From the IMG/VR virus record IMGVR_UViG_3300037325_000137, positions 1-64,000 of that record: DNA of 64,000 nucleotides; one strand, given 5' to 3'. The notes under the pieces are model-generated. The model was not told the DNA's origin. It saw nothing but the letters and a program-made list of their open reading frames with translations, and searched no databases. Of the stretch, positions 21,857-63,656 are shown one piece after another. Made by a program: the position numbers and the translations under genes. The DNA is from a virus. How positions within the stretch are numbered: position 1 is the first letter of the stretch; every line of letters starts with the position of its first letter.

Positions 21857-24800
21857 TTATTTAGGTAGCGAAGGTAGTTTATTCATTGACGTACTAGGTA
21901 GTGGGGGTAGGTTATTACTACTTGACTTTCTAGGGTTCTCTTTGTAAAAGTCATCTTTGTAGTCTTGATCTAAATTACGCTCTATTATTTTCTGTAATGT
22001 AACTCCTGTTCTTTCTTCTCTAACCTTATCTACTCCAAAAAAAGATGCTCCTGCGTATATTCTAGCCCTTTCCGAAGCTGTAAATCCACCTCTATTTTCG
22101 TCATGCAACTCTTCATTAAATAAAGCTATTGTCATTGCGTGTTTTGGTAAACCTAGACCCATTCCAGTCATTTGTGTAATTAATAGTTTGGTGTATTTTT
22201 CTTTAGTTTCTGGGGTTTTAGAGTTTTGTCTTCTTTCAAAGTAGCTTTCTAACTTTTCTATTTCTTGTAAGGCAAAAACATTTCCTATTCCTCCAAAAGT
22301 AAATTCTTTTCTTAAAATTTCTTTGTCTAAATAATACTTAAAAGCATTTCCGAGTATAGGGTCGTCTAGTAATTGACCAGTCAATAACACCCTTGCTATA
22401 TCTTTTTGCTCTTCTGACATTTTATCTAATTCATCATCATCACCAGACATTAAATATCCTAATGTTTGAACAGCTCCATAAATAGCTGCTGGTGCTGCTG
22501 CTACACCGCTAATTTTAACTACGCCCCATAATGCATAGAATAACGGTTGACTAAATCCGTAATTGACAAAACCTCTTATGTTTTTACCAACTGTGTTTGA
22601 TGGCTCTAGGTGTTTGAAATCATTAACGTCATAGCCTAGTTTATCATATATAACACCTATGTTTTCATTATTAGAAGCCATTTTATTTATATGCCTTTTT
22701 AAATCTTTATATCTTAAACTACTTTCTCGCATGTCTAATATTATTGTCGATCCAAAACTTACTAATAGCCTTGCAAAAGCATCTCTTTGAACAACTGTTT
22801 TAGAGCCTTTTGTTTGACCTTGTTGAGTATTGTTAGCTATGTTTTCAAAAACTAACATAGACTCGTCTAAAACTTGTTGCTCTGTAAAGTTTGGGTTTTC
22901 TTTTCTAATTCTTGCTTTTGCAGCTGTATAAACAGGTACAACTCCCATTATCCCCATAGCGTCACCTGCTTTTATCGCATACATTCCTGTATCTAAAGCT
23001 TGATCATAAACTTCGGTTAATATATCTGTTACCATTTTAGACCTATCTCCCAAAAATTGAAAATCTTTTAATTGTCTATTTGTGTCTACCGAAGCTAAAA
23101 CCTTGACCATTTGTTCTGCACTATATCTTATTTTAAGAAATTCTGAATTTTTAAATAAATAAGCTGCTTCTGAAATGATGTTTTTATGTGCATCTAACCA
23201 TTCTTTAGCTGTTAAGTTGTTAGGTAAAGAGCTTTGTCCGTTTAGTGCTGACATCATTTGAATAGGAAGGTTAAATAATTTAGCTCCTAACGTGTATTTT
23301 GCGAAGCTACCTGTTATCGTATTAACAACTCTTTCTGCTGCTGATCTTTTACCGTCTTCGTATATCTCTGTTTTTTGAAACTTTTTAAGGTAATCTATCA
23401 TCATACCACCTTCAAGCCCAATATTTAATAAAGCTAGTTTTTCAAAAGTTTCATCTTTAACTATGTTGTTAAATTCTTTCTCTACTTCTGCGTAAGCTAT
23501 AAACCTAGACATTTCATTTATGTATTGATTTGTACTCATATCTACGGGTTGTACTATTATGGCGTGGTCGTGTTCTTTTTTAGCTTTTGAGCTTCCAGAA
23601 TGAACAGATCCATTTGAAACAATTCCGCTAAATAAATCTTGTGAAAAATCTTTTGCTGAATTAGGCTTGTCTACATTTAATTTACCAGAATAAAATTCAT
23701 CAAAAGGCATGTCTCTATAAAATATTTTTTTATAAACCTCGTTAACTTGATCGTACTTGCTTTGATAAAACTCCATTATTTTGTTTCCGTAGTCCTTTAC
23801 TTCATCTGATAGTTTGTCATTAATTTCATTTATTGCTTTTTCATCAAAACCTTGTTTAGCCAACCTAATTAAGTTTTTAGGATCTTTAGCTTTTAAAATA
23901 ACATCTAGTAAAGTGCTTACTGAAAACTTTGTTACGTCTACAGTTCCGTCTGGGTATGTTCTGTTTATGTTTTCTTGTGCTGATAAAGCCCAATCTGCTT
24001 TTGCTCTTTTAAATTTAGACCTAGATATAAATCCTAAAGACTTTTTAATTACATTAATATCTGAATCTGCAAATGATCCAAAAGCTAATTCTTTAATTTC
24101 GGTTATCTCTTTATTCCATTCAATTATTATTGAATCTCTAGTATTTTCAGACAAGTCGTATTTTGCTAGAACCTTGTCAAGACCTAGTAATGCACTTCCT
24201 TTATCCCCTGTTCTTTTAAATGCTTCTGATATGCTTCTAAAATTTTGGTAAAAACCTCTTGAATATCCTTTTAAAAACTGAATCGATATTTTAATTGCTG
24301 AACGACTTTTAGAAACATTGTCTTTTATATTAGATAATGGCTTGTCAATTTCTTTAGAGCCTAGTTGTTTTTTAGAGTCTATTGCATCGTAAGCTTCTTG
24401 ACGTTGTTGATCTAATATAGCTTTATCTGCTGCTTTTTTTGATTTTAAAATTGAACGACCTTCTGCTTTTAATTCTAAAATATAATCTAAGGAAGCATTA
24501 ATAAGCTTGTTAGCATATTTGTTGTTTTTGATTAGGGAATCTAAAAAGTCTTTAGCAACTTGAAGGTTTTTTAGGTCTTCTGCTTCCTTTTCTGTCAGTT
24601 CTATTTTAGCTACTAATTCAGTTTCCCCACTTTCTGAATTAGGAATTTCTCTTTCTGTGTAAAGTATGTCATCAATTAGCTCGTCTAATTTATTTACAAT
24701 GTCTTTTGCGTTTTGTTGTTTTTCAGTTCCTCTTTTCCCTTTTTTAGCTAATCCGTTTTTAGAAAACAATTCTTCGTATTTTGATTCAAAATCAAAGTTG

Positions 24801-27800
24801 CCATTTATTAATTTTTCAATCGTATCTATAGACCTTTCTGCTGTAAAGTAATCTATAGACCCTGCGACAATTCTACCAGATTGCTTTTTAGATCTTCCTT
24901 TAGACAGCTCTAAAATAAACTTACCTCTTAATCTTTTATTTTCAACTCCTAAAGCTATGTCTTCTGCTTTGTCAAGTACTTCTTTAAGTTTAGCTTTTTG
25001 CTGTTGCTCTAAACTTCTATTATCTCCTTTTGTTTTTGATTTTTTACCTTCAAATTTGGTTAACTCTATAAGTGAATTAAAGTCACTTAGTTTCATAAAG
25101 CCAAACATTCTATTTTCAAAGCTGTCTTTTATGTAGTCTCTTACTGCTTTTTGTGTGTCTCTAACAGAATTTGTTTTGTCTCTTATTTTTTCATCAGCTA
25201 TACGTTTTTTCTCTTCATTACGAGATTTGGATTCGTTATATTTAGTTTCTAAATCAACTGCTAAAGCGTCAATAGCACTTAAAGCGGAATCTATATTTTC
25301 ATTTGTTGATTGCTCTATAATGCTTTCAATAGATTTTATGTTATTAAAAGTAATGTTTGAAAACCACTTGCCTTTTATAACTTCGTTTAAGTATTTTTGA
25401 ATTATGATTCTTCTGCTTTTTTTATCAGTTTTTTCTCCCTGTTCTATTTTTTTAGCATTTTCTCTAGCTTGCTGTAGTTCTGTTTTATTATTATTGTACT
25501 TAGTATCTAGTTTAGCAATTAAAGCGTCTATCTCCTTAATCGCTTTTAAGCCGTTAATATCTGTTTTAGCGTCTGCTACTATTTTTACAAGTTTTTTGGT
25601 ATCTGCATCATTTGCCTGTAGAGCTTGTGCTTTAGTCAGGTTAGCATCTATATAATCTTGTAATGCTTTCTTAACACCTTTTTCTGTTTTGTTTTTTTCG
25701 TTGGTCTTTTCTATTAGCTTTTGCTTAGTTGATCTTACGGCTTCCTCTTGTTCTATAACCGACTGCATAGTTGTATTGGGAGTTGCTGCGTCTTTTCTTT
25801 TTGCTGCATCACGACTAGCTTTTGTCTCTCTTCCAGTTATGTCTTTACCGCTTAGTATTTCGGCTGCTGCAAGGTCTGTAAACTGTTTTAGGTTAAGGTC
25901 AGCTAATTTGTCAGGTTTAATGTTTGATAGCCTTAAACCTGCTGCTATTCTCTTGAATAAAACTTTAAACCATTCTTTAAACCCACCGCTTTTAGCTTCA
26001 TCTAATATTTTAACTCCTTTTTCTCCTATCGCTATTGCAAGAGCTTCTTCTAGTTTTTGCTCTGGCGTAAGGTTATCATAAGCAGTATTATTTATAACAG
26101 CGTCATGATATTCCGTACCTTCAACTAGTTTAAGTCCTTTATCGTAAACGGCTTTATGATTTGCTTTCATGTAAGTATTCCACAAGTGACCAAACTCATG
26201 AACAAGTGTGGAAGAGTTTACTTTGTCGGAGTTTATATAAACTTTTCCTTGATAAACAAAACCATTAGGCGTTCTTACAAAGTCAGCTTGTGCTTGTACG
26301 TTTTCGTAGCCTATTTCTTTTAAAAACTCTACTATCTGCTCGTCTGTAAGAATAACTACATCATCAGCAAGGTTAGTCGGTATAAGTGTTCGTATTTGAT
26401 CTGCCACTTCTTGACTATCAATAACCTCTTGTGGTATTTCATTTTGACCATCTACTTGAAATGGTAGTTCGTCCATTTCCTCACCTACTTCCTGATCTAC
26501 TTGATCTAATTCTTGATTCGCCACGTTTGCTACTGCGTCTATATTAGAGTCAGTAGATTCAAGACCTGTTAGTTCTGTAAACTTATCTTTAAGACTAGAG
26601 ACTTCTGAACTTTCTGATTTTCTTTCTGATTTAGCTTGATTTATATAATCTGTTCCAGAAGTATATTCGTTTACAAAGCCTCTAACATCATCTTCACTAA
26701 CAACATTGTCGCTACCTTGAAATCCTGTTGACTGAACATCAATTGCATCTGTTTCTTGTTGAGTGTTTTCGTCTAATTTACGTTGTGCTGCTTCTATAAT
26801 AGCACCTAAAGTTGATGCTTTTTTGTTACCTCCTTTAAATCCTTGTGATAGATCTACTATTTCATATCCTTTAGTACCGTCTCGTTTATCTACTTTTTTA
26901 AATCTAAGCTCTTTAAAGGTTTCGGCAATAGAGTTTTTCTTAGCTTCATTACTTACTTCGTCTGTATTGACTTGACCGCTTTGCTCTGCTTCTTGTTGGA
27001 TTCTTATTTGACTAGCTACTTCCGATGGATTAGTGGAATTTACTGCTATTTCTTGTGAGTTTATAGATGGGTTGTCACTAGATTCTTGCGGTGTAAATTC
27101 ATTGTTGTCAAAATTATTATTTTCAACATAAGCGTCTATAGCAGCTTTCTCATTCTGTTTAGATACTTTCTTTTCTTTATTAAATGAATTTGTTACAACT
27201 ACCTTTCCATCTTGTAAGCTAACATCTAAAACATCATTGCCAAACCTTTGTCTAATAATAGGTTTAGGAGCTATGTCTATACTTGTGTTTACTTCAACCT
27301 CTCCTTGACTTGCTGTAGGTTCAGCGGTGGGTTGTACTGCGTTATCTTTCCCTTGCTCTGTGTCTGTGTCAGATGTAGGTCGAACGTCTGCATCAGCAGT
27401 AGTATCTCCTTGCGTTTGTGTTTCATCTACTCTTGTTTCATTTCTTCCTTGTAAACCTCTCTCGCTATCTCTATTTGCTTCGATTTCGGAAGACCTCTGA
27501 ATTTCTTCATCAACTCTTTGTTCAACAATTCTTTTTGCTTTTTCATCTGTGTTTATTTTAGTTTCTAATCCTCCTTCTTTTTGTAATGCAAAGTCTAAAA
27601 GCATACCGTTAGCAAGCTCTACAGCTTCTTCTCCTTTAACACTTATAGTATCACCATTAGAGTGTGTTACAACAACTCTTTTTACATTACCATCTTTATC
27701 TGTCTTTATACTTTTAAGACCTTTTTGCTGTGTTGTTATTGTTCCTTTTTCAAAAGAATCACCATTATATTGAAAAGAACCATCTTGATTAACTTCAAAT

Positions 27801-30800
27801 TTAATTACTGTTGGTGTAATAGGCAGTGATTTTTGCTGTAAAGCATCTTGTACTGTTCCTAAAGAAAACTCTTGTTTGCCATCTGTAAAAACAATTTCGT
27901 TACCATCAAAAAACACATCACCAACAAGTTTTTCTTTGTTTATTGGATTAACATATTCTTGTTGTGATTTCTGTATTCTTTCTAAGAATGTTCCTTTTGC
28001 ATCTTGTGGTACGTTATTCGGTAGAGCAAGACTTCTTTTAACTTTATCTTTAAATATTTCAATAGAATCAGCGTTTTCAACGTCTTCGTTCTCTTCTAAG
28101 TATGCTTTGTAACTTTCTGTATGTTCTTCTGCTATACGATTAACTTCTTCATCACGATCTTTTTTAGGATCAATTTCTCCTTCAAGTCTAGTTACGGCAT
28201 CTTCTTCATTCTCTAACTCGTCAAAGTAAGTTTGATTGGAATCTGACGCTTGTGCTATTGCTGTTTGAGTATCTGTGCTTTCAGACTGTGTTTGCTCAAC
28301 TATATCTGTTCCTTCTGTATTTTCTTGTGTAGGGTTTTTAAAGTCTTCCACTCTTTCACTTAAAACTCTGCTTGCTTCTTCATTGTTTTTTATGTCTATA
28401 GATATAGTTCCGTTTGCTACTCCTTCGACAAAATTATCATCTGCTATTTTTTTATAAAGATCAGAACTGTTTGTGATAATTTCTTCTTGACCATCTATCG
28501 TAATAGTTGTTTTTACCTCTGCGGATTCTATTAACTTAGCTTTTTCAGCTTCTAAAGAAGCAAGCCTTTGTTCTAAGAAAACTGTTTCTGATACACTATC
28601 AAGAGTAAGTTCTGTTTTACTTAAAGGATTTGTAGCAGCAGATTTAATATTGGTAATTGTCAACTCTATAGCACTTGCTTGCTCACTTATTTCAACTACT
28701 CTTTTCTTATCTTGAACAGTTAAGTTATCGTAAGCTTCAAAAGTTCTTTTTATCAACTTACCATTCTCTGTGTTTATTTCTCTTATTCTACTTTGATAGG
28801 ACTGAATTATAGTTGTTTTATCTTCTTCGCTTGTTGATTCGCTTTCTGAAACCTCTTCTATTTTTCTTAGCAAAGTATTTGTTTCCTTTACGTTTTTTAC
28901 TATTGTTTTTCTAGAGTTTCTATCTCCTACTATATTACCTACAATTCCTGTTAAAGATGCAGTTCCAGACATCGCTCCACCAGCAGACATCCCTCCTATT
29001 GTTGCTTCCCATGTATTATCAAGAACGCTCTTTTTAGATCCGTCTTCGTTAAAGTTTTCTCCAAAAACATATTTATCAGTAAGGTTTGTAAAAAGTGTAA
29101 TACCTAATTCTTCACCTCCCTCACCAATAGTTCCTTTTCCAAATTCAATACCGCTATTTAAAGTTTTTTTTCTAAAGCTTTCAACCATTGCTGTTTGAAG
29201 TTTTGGCTTACCTATAGATAGTGTCGTTCTTTTTAAGGCTTTTAAGTTTCTTATTTTACCAAATTGAGCTAAAAAAAGTTCTACTCCTGCTGACGCATAA
29301 GAAACAGCCATTATTTCTGTTTCGCTAGGCTCTTGTATAGACTCTAATTGAGATTTACGTTTGTTTAATGCTGGTCTGTTTTGGATTGGTAAATTTTCTT
29401 TTAAAAGATCTTTATTTATTTGGTTTAAATCTTTTTGGTTATCAATCGTTCTTTGTCTAGTAGCTAATTCGGCACTAGCTTGTTGTGAAGCGAAAAAAGA
29501 AGCTTGACCTACGTAAGGTATCGATAATTGAACTAATGTTGGTGTTGTATCTAGAAGAGTATTTTTTACAAATTCCCCAAAATCAGCTATGCCATCTACT
29601 TGGTCTAAGGATATTTTTTCTGTTAATACGTTTTTTCTGTATTCATTAATAGTAGCTACTCTTGATAAAGCTTCTTCTCTTATTCTTATAGTGTTAGCAT
29701 CACCAGTCTCCATTTTACCAGTCTCTTCATTAAAAACAGGTATGTTAACGTTAAATAATTTTTCACCAGAATACAATAGTCCAGATCCTATTTCTGCAAA
29801 ACCAGTGCTTAAAGTTGCTTTTGTTTGAGTAGCAAAATCATAAGTTTTTTTAAGTAGTTCTTTTTCTTCTTCAAATGTCCCTAAAGAGTTTTCACTCTCC
29901 ATAGATTCATCTAAAACAGTTTGAGATTGTGCTGCTAATTCTTGACGCTGCACGACTAAACTTTCTAATTCTATTTTTTTATTTTCAAAGTCTTCTTTAA
30001 AAAGCTGTTGATCCTCTATCGTAAGATCAGGGTTATCCTTTATCGATTTGTTTATTTCGTCAAGACCGTTTGACAAAGACTCAATATTAAGGTCTATATC
30101 TGCAAATTCTTTGTTGGCTTTCGATATTGTTTTGTTTGCCTTGAATATTATGTTTTGATTTACTTGCTCTTCAATAGCAACTAACTCTAATACTTTTTTT
30201 CTTTTTTCTGGATCTAGGTCATTTAAAAACTCTGTCTTCTTTCTTTTGGTAAAAGCTGTTTCAGCACTACCACTATCTAGTTCTTGTTGTCTTTGTCTAT
30301 TTAGCTCTTTAATTTCTTTTAATCTCTCTTTTTCAAAGTTTTTGTCACTTCCGAAAATTTTTGAGAAAGAAAAGTTTTTTAAGTCATTTTCTACACTTCC
30401 TAAAAAGCCTAGTTTTTCTCTTCTATTATCTAAGGTAATTTCGCTTTTAGATTCGGTTATAGTAGACCTTTCTTCGTCACTAATATTCCTTAAATTAATA
30501 AACTCTTGATAAGAGTTCTTAGTTTCTTGATCAGTTTTAGATATTACTTCATTATATTTTTTAGCAACTAAACTTTCAGAAAAATCAGCGTCAAACTCTA
30601 TAGGTCGAAAATCTAAAGGTTGACTTTTAGGTATTGCTGTTTGTGACACCGAAGACAAAGACTCCACCTCGTTTGATATATCCGATACGCCACTTTCCAC
30701 ACTTGAAGTAACAGTCGTAGTTTCTTTTTTTTTTACTTCATCAACTTTTACAGGCTCTTGTGTTGGCTGTTCTACAAGTTCTTGATTTAAGTCACCAAAG

Positions 30801-30991
30801 TATTCACTATAAAATTTATTTGAATCTAAATCAGTTAGTTTATTTTCTTTAAGATAACTATATATTTCATTGCTTTTTTCTTCACTAGAATATTTTGTAG
30901 AAAAAGTTTCAAAATCTAAATCTGTAAGACTTTCTGATTTTAAATAGTCATAAAGCTCTTTTCTTTTAATTGGATCAGTATTGTTTTCCAT
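21857..30991 (-). CDS. Giant virion ejection/polyvalent protein with zincin-like metallopeptidase domain
   Basis: 3044 aa; LVHEFGH...EEALA; long helical and low-complexity regions; follows the tail genes. Confidence 0.7.
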   Translation of the reverse strand: MENNTDPIKRKELYDYLKSESLTDLDFETFSTKYSSEEKSNEIYSYLKENKLTDLDSNKFYSEYFGDLNQELVEQPTQEPVKVDEVKKKETTTVTSSVESGVSDISNEVESLSSVSQTAIPKSQPLDFRPIEFDADFSESLVAKKYNEVISKTDQETKNSYQEFINLRNISDEERSTITESKSEITLDNRREKLGFLGSVENDLKNFSFSKIFGSDKNFEKERLKEIKELNRQRQQELDSGSAETAFTKRKKTEFLNDLDPEKRKKVLELVAIEEQVNQNIIFKANKTISKANKEFADIDLNIESLSNGLDEINKSIKDNPDLTIEDQQLFKEDFENKKIELESLVVQRQELAAQSQTVLDESMESENSLGTFEEEKELLKKTYDFATQTKATLSTGFAEIGSGLLYSGEKLFNVNIPVFNEETGKMETGDANTIRIREEALSRVATINEYRKNVLTEKISLDQVDGIADFGEFVKNTLLDTTPTLVQLSIPYVGQASFFASQQASAELATRQRTIDNQKDLNQINKDLLKENLPIQNRPALNKRKSQLESIQEPSETEIMAVSYASAGVELFLAQFGKIRNLKALKRTTLSIGKPKLQTAMVESFRKKTLNSGIEFGKGTIGEGGEELGITLFTNLTDKYVFGENFNEDGSKKSVLDNTWEATIGGMSAGGAMSGTASLTGIVGNIVGDRNSRKTIVKNVKETNTLLRKIEEVSESESTSEEDKTTIIQSYQSRIREINTENGKLIKRTFEAYDNLTVQDKKRVVEISEQASAIELTITNIKSAATNPLSKTELTLDSVSETVFLEQRLASLEAEKAKLIESAEVKTTITIDGQEEIITNSSDLYKKIADDNFVEGVANGTISIDIKNNEEASRVLSERVEDFKNPTQENTEGTDIVEQTQSESTDTQTAIAQASDSNQTYFDELENEEDAVTRLEGEIDPKKDRDEEVNRIAEEHTESYKAYLEENEDVENADSIEIFKDKVKRSLALPNNVPQDAKGTFLERIQKSQQEYVNPINKEKLVGDVFFDGNEIVFTDGKQEFSLGTVQDALQQKSLPITPTVIKFEVNQDGSFQYNGDSFEKGTITTQQKGLKSIKTDKDGNVKRVVVTHSNGDTISVKGEEAVELANGMLLDFALQKEGGLETKINTDEKAKRIVEQRVDEEIQRSSEIEANRDSERGLQGRNETRVDETQTQGDTTADADVRPTSDTDTEQGKDNAVQPTAEPTASQGEVEVNTSIDIAPKPIIRQRFGNDVLDVSLQDGKVVVTNSFNKEKKVSKQNEKAAIDAYVENNNFDNNEFTPQESSDNPSINSQEIAVNSTNPSEVASQIRIQQEAEQSGQVNTDEVSNEAKKNSIAETFKELRFKKVDKRDGTKGYEIVDLSQGFKGGNKKASTLGAIIEAAQRKLDENTQQETDAIDVQSTGFQGSDNVVSEDDVRGFVNEYTSGTDYINQAKSERKSESSEVSSLKDKFTELTGLESTDSNIDAVANVANQELDQVDQEVGEEMDELPFQVDGQNEIPQEVIDSQEVADQIRTLIPTNLADDVVILTDEQIVEFLKEIGYENVQAQADFVRTPNGFVYQGKVYINSDKVNSSTLVHEFGHLWNTYMKANHKAVYDKGLKLVEGTEYHDAVINNTAYDNLTPEQKLEEALAIAIGEKGVKILDEAKSGGFKEWFKVLFKRIAAGLRLSNIKPDKLADLNLKQFTDLAAAEILSGKDITGRETKASRDAAKRKDAATPNTTMQSVIEQEEAVRSTKQKLIEKTNEKNKTEKGVKKALQDYIDANLTKAQALQANDADTKKLVKIVADAKTDINGLKAIKEIDALIAKLDTKYNNNKTELQQARENAKKIEQGEKTDKKSRRIIIQKYLNEVIKGKWFSNITFNNIKSIESIIEQSTNENIDSALSAIDALAVDLETKYNESKSRNEEKKRIADEKIRDKTNSVRDTQKAVRDYIKDSFENRMFGFMKLSDFNSLIELTKFEGKKSKTKGDNRSLEQQQKAKLKEVLDKAEDIALGVENKRLRGKFILELSKGRSKKQSGRIVAGSIDYFTAERSIDTIEKLINGNFDFESKYEELFSKNGLAKKGKRGTEKQQNAKDIVNKLDELIDDILYTEREIPNSESGETELVAKIELTEKEAEDLKNLQVAKDFLDSLIKNNKYANKLINASLDYILELKAEGRSILKSKKAADKAILDQQRQEAYDAIDSKKQLGSKEIDKPLSNIKDNVSKSRSAIKISIQFLKGYSRGFYQNFRSISEAFKRTGDKGSALLGLDKVLAKYDLSENTRDSIIIEWNKEITEIKELAFGSFADSDINVIKKSLGFISRSKFKRAKADWALSAQENINRTYPDGTVDVTKFSVSTLLDVILKAKDPKNLIRLAKQGFDEKAINEINDKLSDEVKDYGNKIMEFYQSKYDQVNEVYKKIFYRDMPFDEFYSGKLNVDKPNSAKDFSQDLFSGIVSNGSVHSGSSKAKKEHDHAIIVQPVDMSTNQYINEMSRFIAYAEVEKEFNNIVKDETFEKLALLNIGLEGGMMIDYLKKFQKTEIYEDGKRSAAERVVNTITGSFAKYTLGAKLFNLPIQMMSALNGQSSLPNNLTAKEWLDAHKNIISEAAYLFKNSEFLKIRYSAEQMVKVLASVDTNRQLKDFQFLGDRSKMVTDILTEVYDQALDTGMYAIKAGDAMGIMGVVPVYTAAKARIRKENPNFTEQQVLDESMLVFENIANNTQQGQTKGSKTVVQRDAFARLLVSFGSTIILDMRESSLRYKDLKRHINKMASNNENIGVIYDKLGYDVNDFKHLEPSNTVGKNIRGFVNYGFSQPLFYALWGVVKISGVAAAPAAIYGAVQTLGYLMSGDDDELDKMSEEQKDIARVLLTGQLLDDPILGNAFKYYLDKEILRKEFTFGGIGNVFALQEIEKLESYFERRQNSKTPETKEKYTKLLITQMTGMGLGLPKHAMTIALFNEELHDENRGGFTASERARIYAGASFFGVDKVREERTGVTLQKIIERNLDQDYKDDFYKENPRKSSSNNLPPLPSTSMNKLPSLPK

Positions 30992-43501: not shown

Positions 43502-43798
43502 GTTAGCACACATTAAAACTATCTAATATATATTTCGCTAATTTTAAGGCTTGCTCTTTATTTAAGTAAGTATGTGCATCTCCTTGAAAATCTCCCTCTA
43601 TCTCAATCTCAAAGTCATTATCCTTGTCTACTGGGTTTATCACAAAATTATCAAGTGATAAACGTGTGCTAACACTTGGTATAGTGCATTGCTCGGTTTC
43701 GGTTTTTTTACTATCTGTATTCATAATTCAAAGTTTTTGTGTAATTAATTAAGTTCGTGCTATAAGGTCGCAACGACACCATACCATATCCGTTATTA
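43502..43798 (+). mobile_element. Solitary integron-like cassette outside the array
   Basis: GTTAGCACACATT(43502)...AACGTGTGCTAAC(43673), then arms GGTATAGTGCATTGC / GCAACGACACCATACC and GTT at 43792. Confidence 0.75.
43503..43724 (-). CDS. Cassette-encoded hypothetical protein
   Basis: Starts in the attC-like loop; stop TAA lies within the GTTA core. Confidence 0.7.
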   Translation of the reverse strand: MNTDSKKTETEQCTIPSVSTRLSLDNFVINPVDKDNDFEIEIEGDFQGDAHTYLNKEQALKLAKYILDSFNVC

Positions 43799-56712: not shown

Positions 56713-56941
56713 AAAAATCGATTATTGAATTGTGAGCCTTTAATATTTTAATTAGATTCATATAAGTGCTATTATCTTGTGTTTCTTTTATAAATATTTC
56801 TAAGAACTCTTTGTGAGTAATAGGCTTGTAATTTATAAAGAAATCATATTTAAGACTAGGATTAGATGTGATTATATTTCCTATTTCTTGAATATTGTAG
56901 GATTTAAACCTGTGACCTAAATTATTTCTAATTTTATACAT
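56693..56941 (-). CDS. Hypothetical protein translationally coupled to the integrase
   Basis: ATG overlaps the integrase stop codon. Confidence 0.6.
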   Translation of the reverse strand: MYKIRNNLGHRFKSYNIQEIGNIITSNPSLKYDFFINYKPITHKEFLEIFIKETQDNSTYMNLIKILKAHNSIIDFYEKQDK

Positions 56942-57750
56942 TAAATAGGCATTTGAATTTTGCTTAAATGATTTTTTGAAACGTGGGTGTAAATTTCAGT
57001 TGTCTTAGAGCTTTGATGCCCCGCAATAGATTGGATTATCCTTAAATCAGTACCTCCCTCTAGTAAGTGAGTGAAGCAACTATGCCTAAGCTGATGCATA
57101 TAAGCATCTTCTTTAATATACTTTTTAATTATTTTATTACAAGATGTGGCTGAATACTGTAAAGAAGACTGACCGTTAAAAAGATATTCTTTTGGTCTAT
57201 GTTTTTTAAAGTAATCCCTAAGTGTTTTTAGTAGCCCATTAGACAAAGGAACAACTCTATCTTTCTTGCCTTTAGCTTGAATTATATGAATCAATCCTCT
57301 ATTTGAATCAATGTTTTCTATTTTCAGATTTATTATTTCTGAAACCCTTAATCCGCAACTATATGCTGCGGATAAAATAGCTTTATGTTTCATGTTTTTT
57401 ATAGATAATATTTTTTCTGTAAGAATTTTTTTATCTATTATTTGGGGTAGCTTTTTTTCTTTTCTAGGTCTTGAAAAATCTACTTTATCGTATTTTTTAT
57501 TCAGAACTTTTTTGTAAAGAAACTTGATTGAGCTTATTATTTGATTTTGTTGCGATATAGAGCTGAAATTATAATTTTCTAAATAAGATTTAAAATCATT
57601 ACTATCTAGCTTAGAAGGAGACTTTTTATTGACTCTTAAAAATTCTTCAACGTAATAACTATATATTTTTACAGTATTTTTACTGTAGTTAAAATAGTTC
57701 AATTTTGAAATGAAATTCTGCAGAAAAGTGTGTTTAGTTTTGCTTAACAT
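56941..57750 (-). CDS. Tyrosine recombinase, integron-integrase-like but lacking the IntI insertion
   Basis: SAM-like N-terminus (YSKNTVKIY); catalytic R (GLRVSE), K (KGKKDR), HQLRH, GH, Y (TTEIYTHV); 269 aa. Confidence 0.9.
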   Translation of the reverse strand: MLSKTKHTFLQNFISKLNYFNYSKNTVKIYSYYVEEFLRVNKKSPSKLDSNDFKSYLENYNFSSISQQNQIISSIKFLYKKVLNKKYDKVDFSRPRKEKKLPQIIDKKILTEKILSIKNMKHKAILSAAYSCGLRVSEIINLKIENIDSNRGLIHIIQAKGKKDRVVPLSNGLLKTLRDYFKKHRPKEYLFNGQSSLQYSATSCNKIIKKYIKEDAYMHQLRHSCFTHLLEGGTDLRIIQSIAGHQSSKTTEIYTHVSKNHLSKIQMPI

Positions 57751-57799
57751 ATTGATTTATATTGATTTGTTAGTTATGGTTGATATATAGTAGTTAGCA
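57751..57799 (+). other. attI-like site
   Basis: ATTGATTT direct repeats (57751, 57761) and GATATATAGTA-G|TT at 57793 where the first cassette begins; no hairpin. Confidence 0.6.
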
Positions 57800-58084
57800 A
57801 ACATTATTCAAATAATCACAGTACATTTTTGCCTGTTCTTCGCTATGTATAAAGAACACTACCTCTATACCTTTGCCATCGAGTACCGCTTTACCTTGTT
57901 TTCTGCCAACTCTAAAAGGTGGTGTATATTTATTAGCATCATAACGTTTGCTAACACCAGATAAAATTAATGCCTCGTCTACTGCATTTTTAATAAGTCC
58001 TATACATTCTTCTTTTGCTAATGAAGTTCCTACCCAACTTTTTAAATTTTGTGCATGTTTATCAATTATTTGCTCTTTAGTCAT
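57794..58084 (-). CDS. Cassette 1 hypothetical protein
   Basis: Starts in the attC1 loop; stop lies in the GTTA core. Confidence 0.7.
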   Translation of the reverse strand: MTKEQIIDKHAQNLKSWVGTSLAKEECIGLIKNAVDEALILSGVSKRYDANKYTPPFRVGRKQGKAVLDGKGIEVVFFIHSEEQAKMYCDYLNNVC

Positions 58085-58147
58085 TGTCTATTTATTTAAT
58101 TATTGTTATTATTTATCGGCACTAATCTTATCTGCGGTACGTTAGCT
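57949..58147 (+). repeat. attC-like site 1
   Basis: TGCTAAC-ACC-AGATAAAATTAATGCC ... GGCACTAATCTTATCT-GCGGTAC-GTTAGCT. Confidence 0.8.
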
Positions 58148-58155
58148 ACAAGTGC

Positions 58156-58875
58156 TTAATTTAGTTGATTAAACAAAGTTGGTGCTTCAATCTCTTTTTC
58201 TTTTTTTTTCCCCACCCTTTCACTCGCAATATCAAAATAATCCTGTTGCATTTCAATTCCAATAAATCTTCTATTTAGGTTTTTACAAGCAACTCCTGTT
58301 GTACCACTACCCATAAAAGGGTCTAATACTACTTCGTTTTCATTAGTTGAGTTGTTTATATAAAATTCCATTAATTCTATTGGTTTTTCTGTTGGGTGTA
58401 CTTTACTCCCAATTATATTATTAAAAGAATGTACTGTTTTGCTTCCGCCAATGTCATTTATGTATTTAGATTTTCCTTTTCTAAAAAATATAGTGTACTC
58501 GCAATTCTTCATATAAAATTGAGAAGGTGTGCAGTTGTTTTTTTGCCAAACTAAAAAGTTTTGTATTTTAAATCCTGCTTTTTCTATCTCGTTTGCCATT
58601 TTTAGTAAATTAGAAGAGTTTACCATCACATAGTTTTGAGTTCCATCTTTTAGTATTCTAAACATTTCTGGCAACCATTCACTAAATTTAGGAACACTCC
58701 TCATTAGTTCTCTATTTCCTTTCAATATACCTTTTGGTCTAATACTGTTTTTGCCATTACTATCACCTCCTGTTATTATTTTATAAGGAGGGTCAGTAAC
58801 TACACAATCAATACTTTCGCTTGGTAATGTTTTTAATATTTCAAGGGCATCACCCATTTTTAAATCTATATTCAT
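58156..58875 (-). CDS. Cassette 2: DNA N6-adenine/N4-cytosine methyltransferase (beta class)
   Basis: TDPPY, HPTEKP, VLDPFMGSGTT. Confidence 0.92.
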   Translation of the reverse strand: MNIDLKMGDALEILKTLPSESIDCVVTDPPYKIITGGDSNGKNSIRPKGILKGNRELMRSVPKFSEWLPEMFRILKDGTQNYVMVNSSNLLKMANEIEKAGFKIQNFLVWQKNNCTPSQFYMKNCEYTIFFRKGKSKYINDIGGSKTVHSFNNIIGSKVHPTEKPIELMEFYINNSTNENEVVLDPFMGSGTTGVACKNLNRRFIGIEMQQDYFDIASERVGKKKEKEIEAPTLFNQLN

Positions 58876-58975
58876 AATGTTTTAATTTTATCAAATTAAT
58901 TTGCCAACGCTCAAAAAAGAAAATAAAAAGGTTCAGTTCTATTAATTAAGTTTAGGTGTTTAAAGTCGCACCAGT

Positions 58976-59032
58976 AGGTAACACTGTATAAAAGCCATTG
59001 AAAATAACGGCTCTTATACCCATCCGTTAGCA
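58976..59032 (+). repeat. attC-like site 2 (57 bp)
   Basis: AGGTAAC-ACT-GTATAAAAGCC ... GGCTCTTATAC-CCATCC-GTTAGCA. Confidence 0.8.
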
Positions 59033-59036
59033 ACAA

Positions 59037-59279
59037 TTAATTGCCCTGTAAGTAATTGTCTGCAATCCATTCTTTACTTACAAACCTATTTCCTCCACCT
59101 TTTTCAAGGCTTGTTAAAAGGTCAATTAACAGTTCCCTTCGGTTGCTAACATCGTTTAACCGTAATTGCTCGGTTACGTACTTATCTATGAAGTCTGTTA
59201 ACCATTCTACCTTTTCATTTCCAGTCATATCGTTTCTTGATACAAGTTGGTTTAATTTTTCAATCTCTGTTATTTTCAT
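59037..59279 (-). CDS. Cassette 3 hypothetical protein
   Basis: Starts in the attC3 loop; arm read as QLRLNDVSNR. Confidence 0.7.
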   Translation of the reverse strand: MKITEIEKLNQLVSRNDMTGNEKVEWLTDFIDKYVTEQLRLNDVSNRRELLIDLLTSLEKGGGNRFVSKEWIADNYLQGN

Positions 59280-59343
59280 CTGTTCTTATTTATTAAGTTT
59301 TGTTATTAATTCACGCAACTACGGTTACACGTAGCCGTTGTAG
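59144..59343 (+). repeat. attC-like site 3
   Basis: TGCTAAC-AT-CGTTTAACCGTAATTGC ... GCAACTACGGTTACACG-TAGCC-GTT. Confidence 0.8.
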
Positions 59344-59348
59344 TGCAT

Positions 59349-59645
59349 TTACATTACGTTTCGCTCGATACTTATGTTTTTATCAGTAACAACTACTATA
59401 AAGCTTGTTCTTTGCACCGCCAAAGGGGCTTTTTTTTCAAGATGTTTAAGAACGTGGTTTGCACCATTATTTACTATATCACGTCTAGTTTTTAATTGAT
59501 GAAGTTTGTTTTGTACTTGCTCAATTTCGGCTTCCAATTCTTCTTTCTCTAAAGCTATATTCACTAATATATCAGCCCCTTTTATTTCCTCGCCTTGAAT
59601 AAGGTCAGTAATTCCAGAGAAACTTAGGTCGTCAATTTTTTTCAT
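59349..59645 (-). CDS. Cassette 4 coiled-coil hypothetical protein
   Basis: ORF between cognate inverted repeats; start taken at MKKIDD. Confidence 0.7.
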   Translation of the reverse strand: MKKIDDLSFSGITDLIQGEEIKGADILVNIALEKEELEAEIEQVQNKLHQLKTRRDIVNNGANHVLKHLEKKAPLAVQRTSFIVVVTDKNISIERNVM

Positions 59646-59659
59646 AGCAAAAAAACGCA

Positions 59660-59791
59660 CTACAACACTGTATAAAAATAATAGCCTGTTGTAGTGTCTT
59701 TTTAGTGGCTATTACTCACTTATTAATTAATTGTTTAACTTAAACTTTTCGCTTATTTATTCGGCTACTATTCTTATACTAAACGTTGTAA
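59660..59791 (+). repeat. attC-like site 4
   Basis: TACAAC-ACT-GTATAAAAATAATAGCC ... GGCTACTATTCTTATAC-TAAAC-GTT. Confidence 0.85.
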
Positions 59792-59795
59792 GTAA

Positions 59796-60029
59796 TTAAG
59801 GTTCGAGATACCTCAAAGGCACTTCTTTACTCCAAAAACCACCCTTATCAATGTTCTGTACTAACGCTCTTGGTTCGTCATAATATTCTTGTGTTTTACC
59901 ATCTTGAAATATTGGATAATACACCAACATCCATCTGTCTTTTTTACCATCCATTTTATAAACGCTTTCGTTACGCTTATGATTTTTCCAAATCGGGTGG
60001 TTTAAGGCTTTTTCTAAATCTATGTTCAT
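59796..60029 (-). CDS. Cassette 5 hypothetical protein
   Basis: ORF between GTTGTAAGTAATTAA and TTAACTACTTACAAC. Confidence 0.7.
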   Translation of the reverse strand: MNIDLEKALNHPIWKNHKRNESVYKMDGKKDRWMLVYYPIFQDGKTQEYYDEPRALVQNIDKGGFWSKEVPLRYLEP

Positions 60030-60049
60030 TTCTTATTTGCTTTAACTAC

Positions 60050-60252
60050 TTACAACACTATATATAATTAATATAAAAGGGGCGCAGTCCAACTATCCGT
60101 TATTCCTTTCGGGTCAAGCCTAAGCCCCCACGGAAGGAACGTTTTACAGGCTTTGGACACCTTCAATTTCACTATCTAAAACGCTGTTGGTAAACCCACT
60201 AATTTCTGCATTTTTAACCCCTTTTAAACTAATCATATATTTTACGTTATAA
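60050..60252 (+). repeat. attC-like site 5 with a structured GC-rich loop
   Basis: TACAAC-ACT-ATATATAATTAATATAAAAGGGG ... CCCCTTTTAAACTAATCATATAT-TTTAC-GTT. Confidence 0.75.
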
Positions 60253-60519
60253 ACAATACTCTTTTTGTGTATATGGTTCAGAGTAGAAGCATTTATCAGT
60301 ACTATCAAATTTAATATTTCTATACCAAGTTATTTCTGTATTTGTTGTTTTTCCTGTTCTACTACTGCAATCACAATCTTTATGACATTGGCAACTACCA
60401 TTATCAATAGAAGTGTATTTTTTAGTAAATATTCTATAAGAAACACCATCTATAATTGTGATTTGCAATGCTTCCATTTCTATATTCAATCTTTTAGGGT
60501 TTAACAATCTTTCTCGCAT
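60247..60519 (-). CDS. Cassette 6 Cys-rich hypothetical protein
   Basis: CQCHKDCDC; stop in the GTTA core; start taken at MRERLL. Confidence 0.65.
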   Translation of the reverse strand: MRERLLNPKRLNIEMEALQITIIDGVSYRIFTKKYTSIDNGSCQCHKDCDCSSRTGKTTNTEITWYRNIKFDSTDKCFYSEPYTQKEYCL

Positions 60520-60533
60520 AACTTCCGTACAGT

Positions 60534-60628
60534 TTATAACACAGGCTATAAATAAAAGCCCTGTCAAGGTTATTGTTGTGAATCGAACTTTGTGTTTAGG
60601 GCTTCAATTCATAGCCGAGCCGTTATCT
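60534..60628 (+). repeat. attC-like site 6
   Basis: TATAAC-ACA-GGCTATAAATAAAAGCCCT ... AGGGCTTCAATTCATAGCC-GAGCC-GTT. Confidence 0.8.
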
Positions 60629-60799
60629 TTAATAATCAAACTCTTCCTCATTTAATACATCAAAGTGAATATCCTCATTTAATACATCAAAGTGAATATC
60701 CTCTATTTTGTTTTTAATAAACAGTCTTTTAATTCGATAGATAACTAAAGATAACAATGTATAAAATGCATAGCTTAATTTCGTTCTTAAATTTTTCAT
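60629..60799 (-). CDS. Cassette 7 small protein (56 aa) with a 9-aa tandem duplication
   Basis: MKNLRTKLSYAFYTLLSLVIYRIKRLFIKNKIEDIHFDVLNEDIHFDVLNEEEFDY; 27-bp repeat x2 at 60645-60703. Confidence 0.55.
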   Translation of the reverse strand: MKNLRTKLSYAFYTLLSLVIYRIKRLFIKNKIEDIHFDVLNEDIHFDVLNEEEFDY

Positions 60800-60886
60800 C
60801 TGTTCTGTTTTTAAAGTTTATAATTTATAATTAATTCAAAGTCTGTGGTGTTTAGGTCGCTACGCACCTTATACTAAACGTTGTGT
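60749..60886 (+). repeat. attC-like site 7
   Basis: GATAAC-AAT-GTATAAAATGCATAGC ... GCTACGCACCTTATAC-TAAAC-GTT. Confidence 0.8.
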
Positions 60887-60894
60887 GTAATACT

Positions 60895-61137
60895 TTATTT
60901 AGGTTCGTTTACAGCATTACTATCTACTTTTTTCCAAGGACGTTCTATCATATTACAACCTGCTTGATACCAAGTTTGTATTTGTAATTTATTACATTTT
61001 GTACACTTTCTAAAATGAGCATATCTATTATCTTCTTTTCTACCACCGTCCCAATACTTATAAGGATGATATAAATTAAAAAAACAAAGTAATTTTTGCA
61101 ATGCTTTAGGTTTGTCTATTCTTAAAACTTTTTCCAT
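60895..61137 (-). CDS. Cassette 8 small Zn-binding protein (DUF1660-like)
   Basis: LLC....H......RKCTKC. Confidence 0.65.
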   Translation of the reverse strand: MEKVLRIDKPKALQKLLCFFNLYHPYKYWDGGRKEDNRYAHFRKCTKCNKLQIQTWYQAGCNMIERPWKKVDSNAVNEPK

Positions 61138-61171
61138 TTTAATAAAGTTTGTGGCTTAAATTCCGTATTAC

Positions 61172-61267
61172 ACACAACAATGTATATAGTTTATAAGCCA
61201 ATTAATATTTGTTTTTAATTTGTAAATTTCTGATATGGCTTACAAAACCATATACTCAACGTTAGGC
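61172..61267 (+). repeat. attC-like site 8
   Basis: CACAAC-AAT-GTATATAGTTTATAAGCCA ... TGGCTTACAAAACCATATAC-TCAAC-GTT. Confidence 0.85.
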
Positions 61268-61271
61268 ACAA

Positions 61272-61577
61272 TTAAGGTTTGCGTCCTAATAACTTACTTA
61301 GCTTCATCCCCAACCACTCAGGGCAAGGTATAGCTACTACCCATCTTAAATAAGGCAATATACCTACAAAACCAATCCCCCAATGCTCTGTTGCAACTAT
61401 TGAAACTTCAAAGCTAAATGCGTCTAAAGTCCAAAATGTAAATATTAGCCATCTAAAACTAAAACTACTTGTATTGTGTTCGTCTGCTTTCCTTATTTCT
61501 ATTAAGGGTATTAATGGAAATACATTTTTGTTGTACCATTTTTCTGTTCTCATTCTTCCTGATGCTGTTTGTGACAT
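61272..61577 (-). CDS. Cassette 9 hypothetical protein
   Basis: ORF between GTTAGGCAC and GTGCCTAAC. Confidence 0.7.
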   Translation of the reverse strand: MSQTASGRMRTEKWYNKNVFPLIPLIEIRKADEHNTSSFSFRWLIFTFWTLDAFSFEVSIVATEHWGIGFVGILPYLRWVVAIPCPEWLGMKLSKLLGRKP

Positions 61578-61587
61578 AATTAAAAGT

Positions 61588-61681
61588 GCCTAACAATAGC
61601 TAAAGTTAATAGCCTCAATAGGTCTTGTTATAATTTGATGGTTAGTATTAAAGGCTACTAACCTTAGCCTAGACGTTATGA
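61588..61681 (+). repeat. attC-like site 9
   Basis: GCCTAAC-AATA-GCTAAAGTTAATAGCCT ... AGGCTACTAACCTTAGC-CTAGAC-GTT. Confidence 0.85.
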
Positions 61682-61834
61682 TGCAATTAAAATTTTAAGC
61701 ATCTCGTTTAACTTCCCTACACATTGAGCATAGTATCGTTCATTATCTTCCTGTTTCATTATTTTAGCTACTTCATAAAGGTCTGTATAAATACCAATTT
61801 TCTTTATTACAATACTTTTTAGTTCATCCATCAT
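61676..61834 (-). CDS. Cassette 10 small helical protein
   Basis: MMDELKSIV...; stop in the GTTA core. Confidence 0.55.
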   Translation of the reverse strand: MMDELKSIVIKKIGIYTDLYEVAKIMKQEDNERYYAQCVGKLNEMLKILIAS

Positions 61835-61849
61835 TAAAATTTTAAAAGC

Positions 61850-61934
61850 ACATAACAATGTATAAAATTAATGCGCTATGATAATTAGTGTTAAATTTTT
61901 AAGTATGTGGTTAGCGCACTAATCTTATACTAAC
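61850..61934 (+). repeat. attC-like site 10 (downstream GTT core apparently deleted)
   Basis: CATAAC-AAT-GTATAAAATTAATGCGCTA ... TAGCGCACTAATCTTATAC-TAAC, with no GTT at the expected position. Confidence 0.75.
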
Positions 61935-61944
61935 TGCAATGTTG

Positions 61945-62193
61945 CTATTTAAAGTTTTGCCTAAACGGCTTGTTACATTTTGGACAAGAAGTGCCTAAAT
62001 ACAAGCCTTTGATTATCGGTTCGCAACACTGTTCGCTCTGCCTTACAACAACGGGTATAGAAAATAATTCAGAAGGCATCAGTCTTTCTATCACGTCTAT
62101 TGCACTCCATATTTCTCTTGATTCATAACTGTGATGTATTGAGTCAAAGTGTTCTGCTCTTTTTTCTAGTGTTTTAATAACGTCTGCTTTCAT
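61945..62193 (-). CDS. Cassette 11 protein with C-terminal Zn-ribbon
   Basis: Starts in the attC11 loop; arm read as LFSIPVVVRQ; CC...CPKC. Confidence 0.7.
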   Translation of the reverse strand: MKADVIKTLEKRAEHFDSIHHSYESREIWSAIDVIERLMPSELFSIPVVVRQSEQCCEPIIKGLYLGTSCPKCNKPFRQNFK

Positions 62194-62253
62194 CTTTTAA
62201 GTTTTTGCGTTTTAAATCCTCCTAAATTAAATTCCATACCCAAACCGTTAGCA
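62043..62253 (+). repeat. attC-like site 11
   Basis: TTACAAC-AAC-GGGTATAGAAAATAATT ... AATTAAATTCCATACCC-AAACC-GTT. Confidence 0.75.
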
Positions 62254-62373
62254 TTAATACTCAGTACCTAAGTATTCTACTAAATAAGGGTAGTCCCAAC
62301 TTTTACTGCTACTGTAATACATTTTCCAGTAACCTCTATTATTCTTTATTATTTCAGTCCATTTACTTGTCAT
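62254..62373 (-). CDS. Cassette 12 micro-protein (39 aa)
   Basis: MTSKWTEIIKNNRGYWKMYYSSSKSWDYPYLVEYLGTEY between GTTAGCATTAATAC and GTACTAATGCTAAC. Confidence 0.55.
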   Translation of the reverse strand: MTSKWTEIIKNNRGYWKMYYSSSKSWDYPYLVEYLGTEY

Positions 62374-62400
62374 AGTTTCTATTTTTTAAGTCCGTACTAA

Positions 62401-62453
62401 TGCTAACAATATGTAAAAAACATTAAAACGATGTGTTATACTAGACGTTAGCA
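62401..62453 (+). repeat. attC-like site 12 (minimal, 53 bp)
   Basis: TGCTAAC-AATATGTAAAAAACAT...ATGTGTTATAC-TAGAC-GTT. Confidence 0.65.
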
Positions 62454-62732
62454 AACATTTATGTTGTTGCTATCTATAAAGCTTTTAGGATTTCCGCAAC
62501 CTATTAAAAACTCTGCTCCGTTACCTAATTTAAAGTAACATCTATCCCAATCATTGCTTCTATCGAAAGTAAAATTTTCACCTTTTTTTATGGTATAATA
62601 ACACCCTTTCCAACTCAAATTCTCCCTTCTATTGTTAGGTATATTACCCACATCAGTGGCTTCTATGGGTGTGCTACCATACCTACCTTTATCAATAAAA
62701 ACTCTAATATCTTCTGTTGCTTGTAAATTCAT
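62448..62732 (-). CDS. Cassette 13 hypothetical protein
   Basis: Start taken at MNLQAT; stop in the GTTA core. Confidence 0.7.
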   Translation of the reverse strand: MNLQATEDIRVFIDKGRYGSTPIEATDVGNIPNNRRENLSWKGCYYTIKKGENFTFDRSNDWDRCYFKLGNGAEFLIGCGNPKSFIDSNNINVC

Positions 62733-62744
62733 AATTAAACGATT

Positions 62745-62838
62745 TGCTAACACAACCTATACACCATAAAGCAATATAGTATTGTGCTAATATTAAACAT
62801 TGTGCTACGCTTTACGGTGCATAGCTTTACCGTTGGCG
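62745..62838 (+). repeat. attC-like site 13
   Basis: TGCTAAC-ACAAC-CTATACACCATAAAGC ... GCTTTACGGTGCATAG-CTTTACC-GTT. Confidence 0.8.
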
Positions 62839-62844
62839 GTAATA

Positions 62845-63195
62845 CTACATTAGTACCTTATCCATCATTTCATTTATGTTCTCCGCAATTTTTTCATCAT
62901 AACCTCTATTGTAAAATTCATCGCCAGTAGTCAAATGATAAGTACCTATGTTATCCAAATACTGTTTCATTTTTTCATAAGGTTCAGTATTTTCATACCC
63001 TATCAAATTAAGATAAGACCAATAACATTTAATAGAAAATTGCTCTGTGTTTGTTCCTCTATCTGTTCTTTTTTCGTTTTGTCTTTGTATCCATAAGGCT
63101 TGTTCTTTCTTGTAGTCTGTGTACTTTAAAGCCGTACTACTGCCAACAAAAAATATAGCAAATGCTTTTCGTAATCTTTGGGTAAATTGTTTCAT
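62845..63195 (-). CDS. Cassette 14 hypothetical protein
   Basis: Starts in the attC14 loop; arm read as AFAIFFVGSS. Confidence 0.7.
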   Translation of the reverse strand: MKQFTQRLRKAFAIFFVGSSTALKYTDYKKEQALWIQRQNEKRTDRGTNTEQFSIKCYWSYLNLIGYENTEPYEKMKQYLDNIGTYHLTTGDEFYNRGYDEKIAENINEMMDKVLM

Positions 63196-63261
63196 ACTTC
63201 TAATTTTTAGTTCATTTAAGTTAGAGTGTTGTTGGCACTTGCCATCTTCAAACCGTTAGCC
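63141..63261 (+). repeat. attC-like site 14
   Basis: TGCCAAC-AAAAAATATAGCAAATGC ... GCACTTGCCATCTT-CAAACC-GTT. Confidence 0.75.
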
Positions 63262-63522
63262 ACCATTTGAAAAACCGCACTCATCCAAGAAGCTTTGTCC
63301 AACAGGAGAACCTAACCATTGAATTAAGTTTACGCAAATATCTTCTTCTTTTTCGGACAACCACTCTTTAGGTTGCGTTTGTCTATCATTAGACCACCCA
63401 TTCACAATAGCACTTAGGCTTTTTCTGGCAGAACCATCATGATTGAACATTTTAATAAATTTATCGTGAAATTCTTTTTCTTTAGGATTGTCATTAAATC
63501 TGTATTCTTTATTGCCTTTCAT
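63256..63522 (-). CDS. Cassette 15 hypothetical phage protein
   Basis: NPKEKEF...IQWLGSPVGQSFL; stop in the GTTA core. Confidence 0.75.
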   Translation of the reverse strand: MKGNKEYRFNDNPKEKEFHDKFIKMFNHDGSARKSLSAIVNGWSNDRQTQPKEWLSEKEEDICVNLIQWLGSPVGQSFLDECGFSNGG

Positions 63523-63533
63523 AGTAAAACGGT

Positions 63534-63656
63534 GGCTAACAATGTATATAGCAAATAGCCTTATTAGCCATTTTAGAAACTACTTGCTTGTTTATAATTT
63601 ATTTACTTTTTACTTAATTCTGTGATAGGCTACTTGCCATATACTAAACATTGTAG
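63534..63656 (+). repeat. attC-like site 15 (core ATT instead of GTT)
   Basis: GGCTAAC-AAT-GTATATAGCAAATAGCCT ... AGGCTACTTGCCATATAC-TAAAC-ATT. Confidence 0.8.

Follow-up and report, generated by a model that had tools for sequence, protein, structure and literature searches.

To address whether integron-style capture of gene cassettes could run on an enzyme other than a canonical integron integrase, we analyzed a small tyrosine recombinase gene at positions 56941 to 57750 on the minus strand of a viral genome and the row of hairpin-bounded genes beside it. The window analyzed comprised the first 64,000 nucleotides of a 78,375-bp IMG/VR virus record (IMGVR_UViG_3300037325_000137), rated 100% complete, with a 127-bp direct terminal repeat and nearly all genes on the minus strand. 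The only sequencing run holding the whole stretch was a salt-lake metagenome. A preliminary description based on the sequence alone had proposed that the recombinase lacks the extra segment (I2 helix) of IntI enzymes, that it represents a distinct clade handling hairpin sites differently, and that integron detectors could miss it for this reason.

A tyrosine recombinase without the IntI-specific segment

The open reading frame encodes a protein of 269 amino acids (aa) plus stop, in which Pfam searches identified an N-terminal core-binding domain (Phage_int_SAM_4, residues 9 to 88, 1.1e-14) and a catalytic domain (Phage_integrase, residues 116 to 261, 3.6e-37). PF22823, which was also listed among the domains, is just another recombinase catalytic-domain family. 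The full catalytic set, R135, K163 (in KGKKDR), H219-x-x-R222, H245, and Y254, was present and invariant or nearly so in a 52-sequence alignment. Y254 (codon at 56989 to 56991, minus strand), the predicted nucleophile in TTEIYTH, was invariant both there and in an alignment with IntI proteins, and was aligned to the catalytic Tyr region of XerA, XerD, and IntI. The idea that the gene is a broken or truncated intI was rejected, as the frame and catalytic set are intact and the whole clade has the same length.

The absence of the IntI segment was shown by four comparisons. First, a phmmer search against the PDB aligned the protein to VchIntIA (2a3v) in two stretches, query 20 to 180 with IntI 16 to 180 and query 212 to 267 with IntI 260 to 315, which indicates about 48 extra residues in IntI, while Pyrococcus abyssi XerA (4a8e) aligned collinearly over 9 to 264 (1e-38). 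Second, the IntI models TIGR02249 and NF011946 matched in two stretches. Third, tblastn aligned query 10 to 269 (260 aa) to 311 codons of intI1. Fourth, a multiple alignment with IntI1, three phage-borne IntI proteins (Shewanella M16-3, Vibrio Va_PF430-3_p42, and virus Rctr41k), two XerD proteins, and relatives showed 32 + 11 extra columns in the four IntI proteins exactly between ...HRP and KEYLFNGQ. A class-level genome search for true IntI hit a small-genome clade and returned 0 of 301, and the true IntI proteins were therefore taken from a plasmid and three phage records. Overall, the protein lacks the roughly 43 to 50 residues that IntI1 and the IntI proteins of Vibrio, Shewanella, and Rctr41k phages carry between the third strand and the HxxR helix. 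At this place it has only a short loop formed by codons 185 to 200 (57151 to 57198, minus strand; RPKEYLFNGQSSLQYS). In the AlphaFold2 model (mean pLDDT 89.1), helix 171 to 184 is followed by this loop (pLDDT about 70) and then by helix 201 to 211, with nothing standing in for an I2 helix. The absence of the segment seen in the preliminary description was therefore confirmed, although the statement there that KGKKDRVVPL runs almost directly to EYLFNG is slightly loose, because 18 residues forming one helix separate VVPL from EYLFNG, against about 50 in IntI1.

Placement among XerA/IntI-like recombinases

In NCBIfam searches the protein reached no curated cutoff, scoring 180.5 against 220 for archaeal XerA (NF040815), 158.7 against 329.6 for XerD (TIGR02225), 157.7 against 265 for IntI (TIGR02249), 103 against 435 for NF011946, and 147.7 against 335 for XerC (TIGR02224). 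Foldseek ranked XerA (5hxy, 2.4e-14) and VchIntIA (2a3v, 2.9e-14) equally at the top. The protein database holds thousands of relatives, of which the best 120 were all 263 to 304 aa (117 of them 263 to 275 aa) and 60 to 77% identical, mostly from metagenomes. A scan of IMG/VR found 209 loci, of which 80 were kept, at 55 to 67% identity on contigs of 5 to 350 kb. The genes flanking the recombinase in the window had no homologues in those loci apart from scattered methyltransferases, so the backbones are unrelated and the recombinase is the only protein shared by the loci. The only DNA-level hits in the phage collection were short matches to Cellulophaga phages phi13:1 and phi19:3 and to Maribacter phage Panino. 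The 76-nt Panino match is the conserved start of a small lipoprotein-like ORF that overlaps a hairpin arm, and Panino has no true homologue (18 bits). In a genome collection with one genome per species, the best relatives were only 40 to 52% identical and mostly about 350 to 385 aa because of an N-terminal extension of about 100 residues without a Pfam match. These bacterial relatives also lack the IntI segment, and they do pass the XerA model, at 208 to 244.

A quick IQ-TREE analysis of 88 proteins placed XerC/XerD and similar proteins on one side of a branch with 99 support and IntI (99) plus all insertion-less proteins (97) on the other. The phage proteins, of 263 to 270 aa, formed one clade (SH-aLRT 100, together with two MAG contigs that look viral) outside canonical IntI and outside XerC/XerD, nested in a polytomy of the longer insertion-less bacterial relatives, in agreement with the distinct clade proposed in the preliminary description. 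When ten archaeal MAG proteins matching the XerA model were added, the supergroup of IntI, archaeal proteins, bacterial relatives, and phage clade kept 99 support, although the order inside it was weak (65 to 87). A phylum-level search for XerA found only a locus already included. Thus, the enzyme is a distinct lineage of the XerA/IntI-like branch that has never had, or no longer has, the I2 segment, and in this tree, which lacks validated XerA sequences, the insertion-less state looks ancestral rather than a loss. Notably, Smyshlyaev et al. 2021 already noted that the IntI insertion is "not fully conserved" in their integron-like subgroup but assigned no function to the members without it.

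Hairpin sites and cassette insertions beside the gene

Upstream of the gene, small ORFs on the minus strand are separated by imperfect hairpin sites on the coding strand (57951 to 63654). The conserved ends are YAAC-G..GTATA on the left and TATAC..TGTTR on the right, between which a stem that differs from site to site but stays complementary surrounds an AT-rich loop of 12 to 100 nt. To detect such sites, we wrote a small banded alignment scorer for this grammar and checked it against shuffles. At a score of 30 or more, it found 13 sites in the genome against about 0.6 in shuffles, and chance was therefore rejected as the origin of the repeats. Sites at this score in the array lie at 57951 to 58145, 59662 to 59789, 60052 to 60250, 60536 to 60626, 60751 to 60884, 61174 to 61265, 61590 to 61679, 62045 to 62251, 62747 to 62836, and 63536 to 63654, with weaker or compact sites near 58977 to 59031, 59146 to 59341, and 63143 to 63259. 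A solitary site of the same grammar lies 14 kb from the array, at 43669 to 43796 (minus strand), and is 85.7% identical over 140 nt to a cassette hairpin of Polaribacter phage Freya_10. A search of the window against Rfam found no family, and ARAGORN found no tRNA.

The association with the recombinase extends to dozens of other phages. In the 80 viral loci, 285 sites lie on the recombinase's strand within 6 kb upstream, 1 on the other strand there, and 10 within 6 kb downstream, against 12 in shuffles of all 1.2 Mb. Of 47 non-redundant loci with at least 1.5 kb of upstream sequence, 45 have a site within 3 kb and 40 have two or more, with a median of 4 and a median spacing of 396 nt. Flanking genes are not conserved, so this is not shared synteny. 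Interestingly, the bacterial relatives show the mirror arrangement, with 59 sites downstream on the opposite strand against 14 elsewhere. On a Chryseobacterium plasmid (NZ_CP041688), the recombinase is followed by co-directional, unrelated small genes interrupted by an IS110-family transposase and a group II intron, kinds of element that may target attC sites. Conversely, Polaribacter phage P12002L and phage PH101 have such sites but no homologue.

Moreover, an attI-like motif, TAAC^TAnnATATAT (the caret marks the break), lies 24 to 46 nt upstream of the start codon in most of 75 homologous loci. In the window it reads GCTAAC^TACTATATATCAAC at 57779 to 57798 (minus strand), the break falling after C57793, 42 nt upstream of the recombinase ATG, and the TAA of TAAC is also the stop codon of the neighboring ORF 57794 to 58084. 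Near-identical phage backbones differ by whole cassettes inserted exactly at a conserved ...AAC^ junction 25 to 55 nt upstream of the recombinase start codon. Four of the IMG/VR contigs (L005, L006, L007, and L011) are 96 to 100% identical from 55 nt upstream of the start codon onward and unrelated before it, with the break directly after AAC. L006 equals L011 plus one 758-nt unit, a hairpin and a 192-aa ORF, inserted at CATAAC^TATCAT, while L005 and L007 carry first cassettes different from that of L011 on 100% identical backbones. In contig L047, a 960-nt cassette ends ...GTATAAC^ and abuts the attI-like sequence, whereas in contig L063 the same cassette (99.9%) ends with the same letters but abuts further cassettes that lie between it and the recombinase, as expected if new cassettes enter next to the enzyme. 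The cultured Polaribacter phages Freya_1 and Freya_10 encode a 271-aa relative, 37% identical to this protein and closest to the phage clade. They are 100% and 99.9% identical on either side of a 4.9-kb block of about ten small ORFs, inserted at TTTACAAC^ACCCCTATAAC (ACAAC^ACCCC), 45 nt upstream of that gene. In addition, contigs of three other salt-lake runs carry single cassettes of the window's array at 95 to 99.5% identity and then run on into unlike sequence; the recombinase and backbone part had no cover in these runs, which proves nothing and was not used as evidence.

We considered whether the cassettes might move by other means, either homologous recombination between repeated promoter or stem-loop modules, as proposed for PeSL elements of T4-type phages, or a host IntI, with the recombinase as a bystander such as a Xer-like resolvase of genome dimers or concatemers. 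Within some arrays the hairpins are 95 to 100% identical over about 50 nt, which could support homologous recombination and explain some of the shuffling; the best solved-structure match is XerA, a dif resolvase; and CALIN-type phages without any homologue exist. However, the attI-like site shares only TAAC with the hairpin sites, so homologous recombination cannot make the joints that fall exactly there, and in these loci, in contrast to PeSL-type cassettes, a dedicated recombinase is always adjacent. Furthermore, the 285:1 strand bias and the one-sided position are unexplained if the gene is unrelated, canonical IntI was not found in this phage, and it is rare in Bacteroidetes (PMC9024848). 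This explanation was considered unlikely.

An RNA-level explanation, in which the hairpins are mainly processing, stability, or termination signals of early transcripts and the association reflects common descent of an early-gene module, was considered very unlikely. The stems keep pairing through G-U-compatible changes on the sense strand, and all genes and hairpins share one strand; the hairpins would also form in the mRNA. Nevertheless, RNA function does not explain whole-cassette insertions at a fixed DNA junction beside the recombinase, nor cassette sharing between unrelated phages, and the backbones carrying the module are unrelated. A dual role remains possible.

An ordinary lysogeny integrase (attP x attB) lying beside a hairpin-rich early region is the published reading for the cultured relatives Freya, Leef, and Ingeline, in which Bartlau et al. 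took the gene as a sign of temperate potential. PHROGs and GenBank annotations call the relatives "integrase," and in 11 of 80 viral loci the contig ends within 200 nt upstream of the gene, which could be a provirus border but is equally expected from population variation of the first cassette. The protein has no arm-binding domain, no tRNA or other conserved target lies next to the gene in 60 loci, and several carriers are very large (contigs of 100 to 350 kb) with phage-type tRNA clusters. In addition, this genome is a complete phage with direct terminal repeats, and the sequence that varies at the junction is phage cassettes, not host DNA. This reading also appears unlikely, although a second role in lysogeny is not excluded.

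Proposed role and comparison with known systems

Considering these results together, we propose with fair confidence that the gene encodes the site-specific recombinase of a phage-borne, integron-like gene-cassette platform. The link is strong but comparative, resting on context without a biochemical or genetic test of any clade member, and that this enzyme is the catalyst and that the sites react as folded single strands are inferences. Most likely, the enzyme binds the paired AAC/GTT boxes and the inner TATA box of a folded site, as well as the double-stranded attI-like site, and exchanges strands directly after AAC, whereby cassettes would be inserted next to the recombinase gene, excised, and reshuffled. 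Without an I2 helix it cannot hold bulged bases as VchIntIA does. Site and strand choice may instead rest on conserved box sequence, on the asymmetric spacer (about 5 nt on the left against 3 nt on the right), and on G-T wobbles that exist only on the coding strand. That hairpin sites are handled differently, as the preliminary description suggested, follows from the missing segment but is likewise inference. The suggestion that detectors could miss the enzyme fits the low IntI score and the requirement of IntegronFinder, which we did not run here, for the IntI-specific profile (PMC9024848; PMC9668308).

This proposal stands against the literature, which holds the I2 segment to be necessary for attC recombination (Messier and Roy 2001, cited in PMC9668308; PMC7790495) and treats it as the defining feature of integron integrases and the step that made single-strand hairpin recombination possible (Messier and Roy 2001; Escudero et al. 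2020). Integron papers in the library searched report almost no complete integrons in Bacteroidetes (PMC9024848) and only integrase-less attC clusters in virulent phages, and no paper describing an I2-less cassette integrase was found there. Slightly more likely than not, insertion-less XerA/IntI-like recombinases, comprising the 263- to 271-aa phage clade and the roughly 375-aa relatives in Bacteroidota, Nitrospirota, and Bacillota, form a second, widespread class of integron integrases. If so, hairpin-site cassette recombination either predates I2 or arose twice, and integrons would be far commoner in Bacteroidota and in lytic phages than IntI-based detectors report. Such enzymes would supply the missing enzyme for at least part of the integrase-less attC clusters in phages and Bacteroidota and would reveal a large reservoir of mobile phage genes, including methyltransferases and probably anti-defense genes. 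Many phage "integrases" now read as lysogeny markers would instead be cassette recombinases, which would warn against calling flavobacterial phages temperate on this basis.

Among known systems, archaeal XerA (P. abyssi 4a8e; Thermoplasma acidophilum 5hxy) aligns collinearly without large indels and is of similar size, but XerA resolves chromosome dimers at a double-stranded dif site, while this enzyme is phage-borne and tied to hairpin arrays. The clusters of attC sites lacking an integrase (CALINs) in virulent phages (Qi et al. 2023, PMC9892861) share the kind of hairpin site, as P12002L_attC1 equals our site at 30007 to 30058 of the P12002L locus (L204), and both sit in a flavobacterial phage early region with methyltransferase cassettes. 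Those phages have no homologue of this recombinase and no cognate enzyme was proposed for them, whereas here the array has its own adjacent recombinase and an attI-like site. Interestingly, P12002L_attC1 was the only one of six phage sites without a verified junction with IntI1, a hint, no more, that such sites prefer another enzyme. The insertion-less bacterial relatives annotated "site-specific tyrosine recombinase/integron integrase," such as that of the Chryseobacterium plasmid, also lie beside arrays of the same grammar, but are longer and have their array downstream of the gene on the opposite strand. XerCD acting on the folded single-stranded attP of CTX-type filamentous phages may offer a precedent for Xer-type enzymes without an I2 helix recombining a folded hairpin that mimics a double-stranded core site, although that system would involve host enzymes, one site, and a single integration event, with no cassette array. 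Integron integrases (IntI1; Vibrio cholerae VchIntIA, 2a3v) share the SAM_4-type N-domain, the larger clade apart from XerC/XerD, an attI-like site at the 5' end of the gene, and an array of one-gene cassettes bounded by imperfect hairpins with AAC/GTT boxes, in which cassettes enter next to the integrase with the crossover at AAC^ (= G^TT). In contrast to these enzymes, the recombinase described here lacks the segment with the I2 helix, has 269 aa against 320 to 337 aa, is co-directional with the cassette ORFs and lies downstream of them, has cassette ORFs on the strand that carries the G-T wobbles and site boxes more conserved in sequence, and is carried by lytic-looking phages.

Features across the genome

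Beyond the array, the structural region was found to contain six or more copies of a 42-nt periodic repeat at 10617-10952, which lie inside a 567-aa ORF (9641-11344, -), while a single ORF of 3044 aa was located in the structural module at 21857-30991 (-). In addition, a 1.1-kb stretch without ORFs was observed between the leftward early genes and a rightward gene block (genome positions 72574-73681, corresponding to 14199-15306 of L002, a locus of this genome); it may be a control or origin region. Notably, two look-alike hairpin sites, at 57951-58145 (-) of the window and at L002:16321-16517 (+) (genome positions 74696-74892), lie in inverted orientation 16.5 kb apart, with each being on the coding strand of its own gene block. 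These two sites share the arms AACGTACCGCAGATAAGATTAGT and ATTAATTTTATCTGGTGTT, and recombination between them would invert the whole early region.

Cassette contents and links to other phages

Within the array, a 239-aa DNA methyltransferase (58156-58875, -) occupies the position of the second unit, and homologues lie in the site-rich region of P12002L as well as near the recombinase in several other viral loci. A perfect 27-nt tandem duplication was also detected inside the array at 60645-60698. Interestingly, a small ORF (window 60629-60799, -, compared with the locus L163:7791-8048) starts inside a hairpin loop and reads through the right arm (MKNLRTKLSYAFYTLL...). The first 76 nt of this ORF, together with the upstream leader, are 94.7% identical to the start of a lipoprotein-like gene of Maribacter phage Panino, which has no such recombinase. 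Moreover, a solitary site at 43669-43796 (-), located 14 kb from the array, is 85.7% identical over 140 nt to the hairpin of the first extra cassette of the North Sea Polaribacter phage Freya_10. Thus, the same cassette end occurs in unrelated phages from different habitats.

Bacterial relatives of the recombinase

Relatives of the recombinase were also identified in bacterial loci (L083-L162 and L184; e.g., L116:10790-20771 and L184:9814-18798), being found in Bacteroidota, Nitrospirota, Desulfitobacterium, and some archaeal MAGs. These proteins are about 375 aa in length, have an N-terminal extension of unknown fold, and lack the I2 segment. Arrays of the same kind of site lie downstream of the gene on the opposite strand, and these loci look like an uncounted class of chromosomal and plasmid integron-like arrays.
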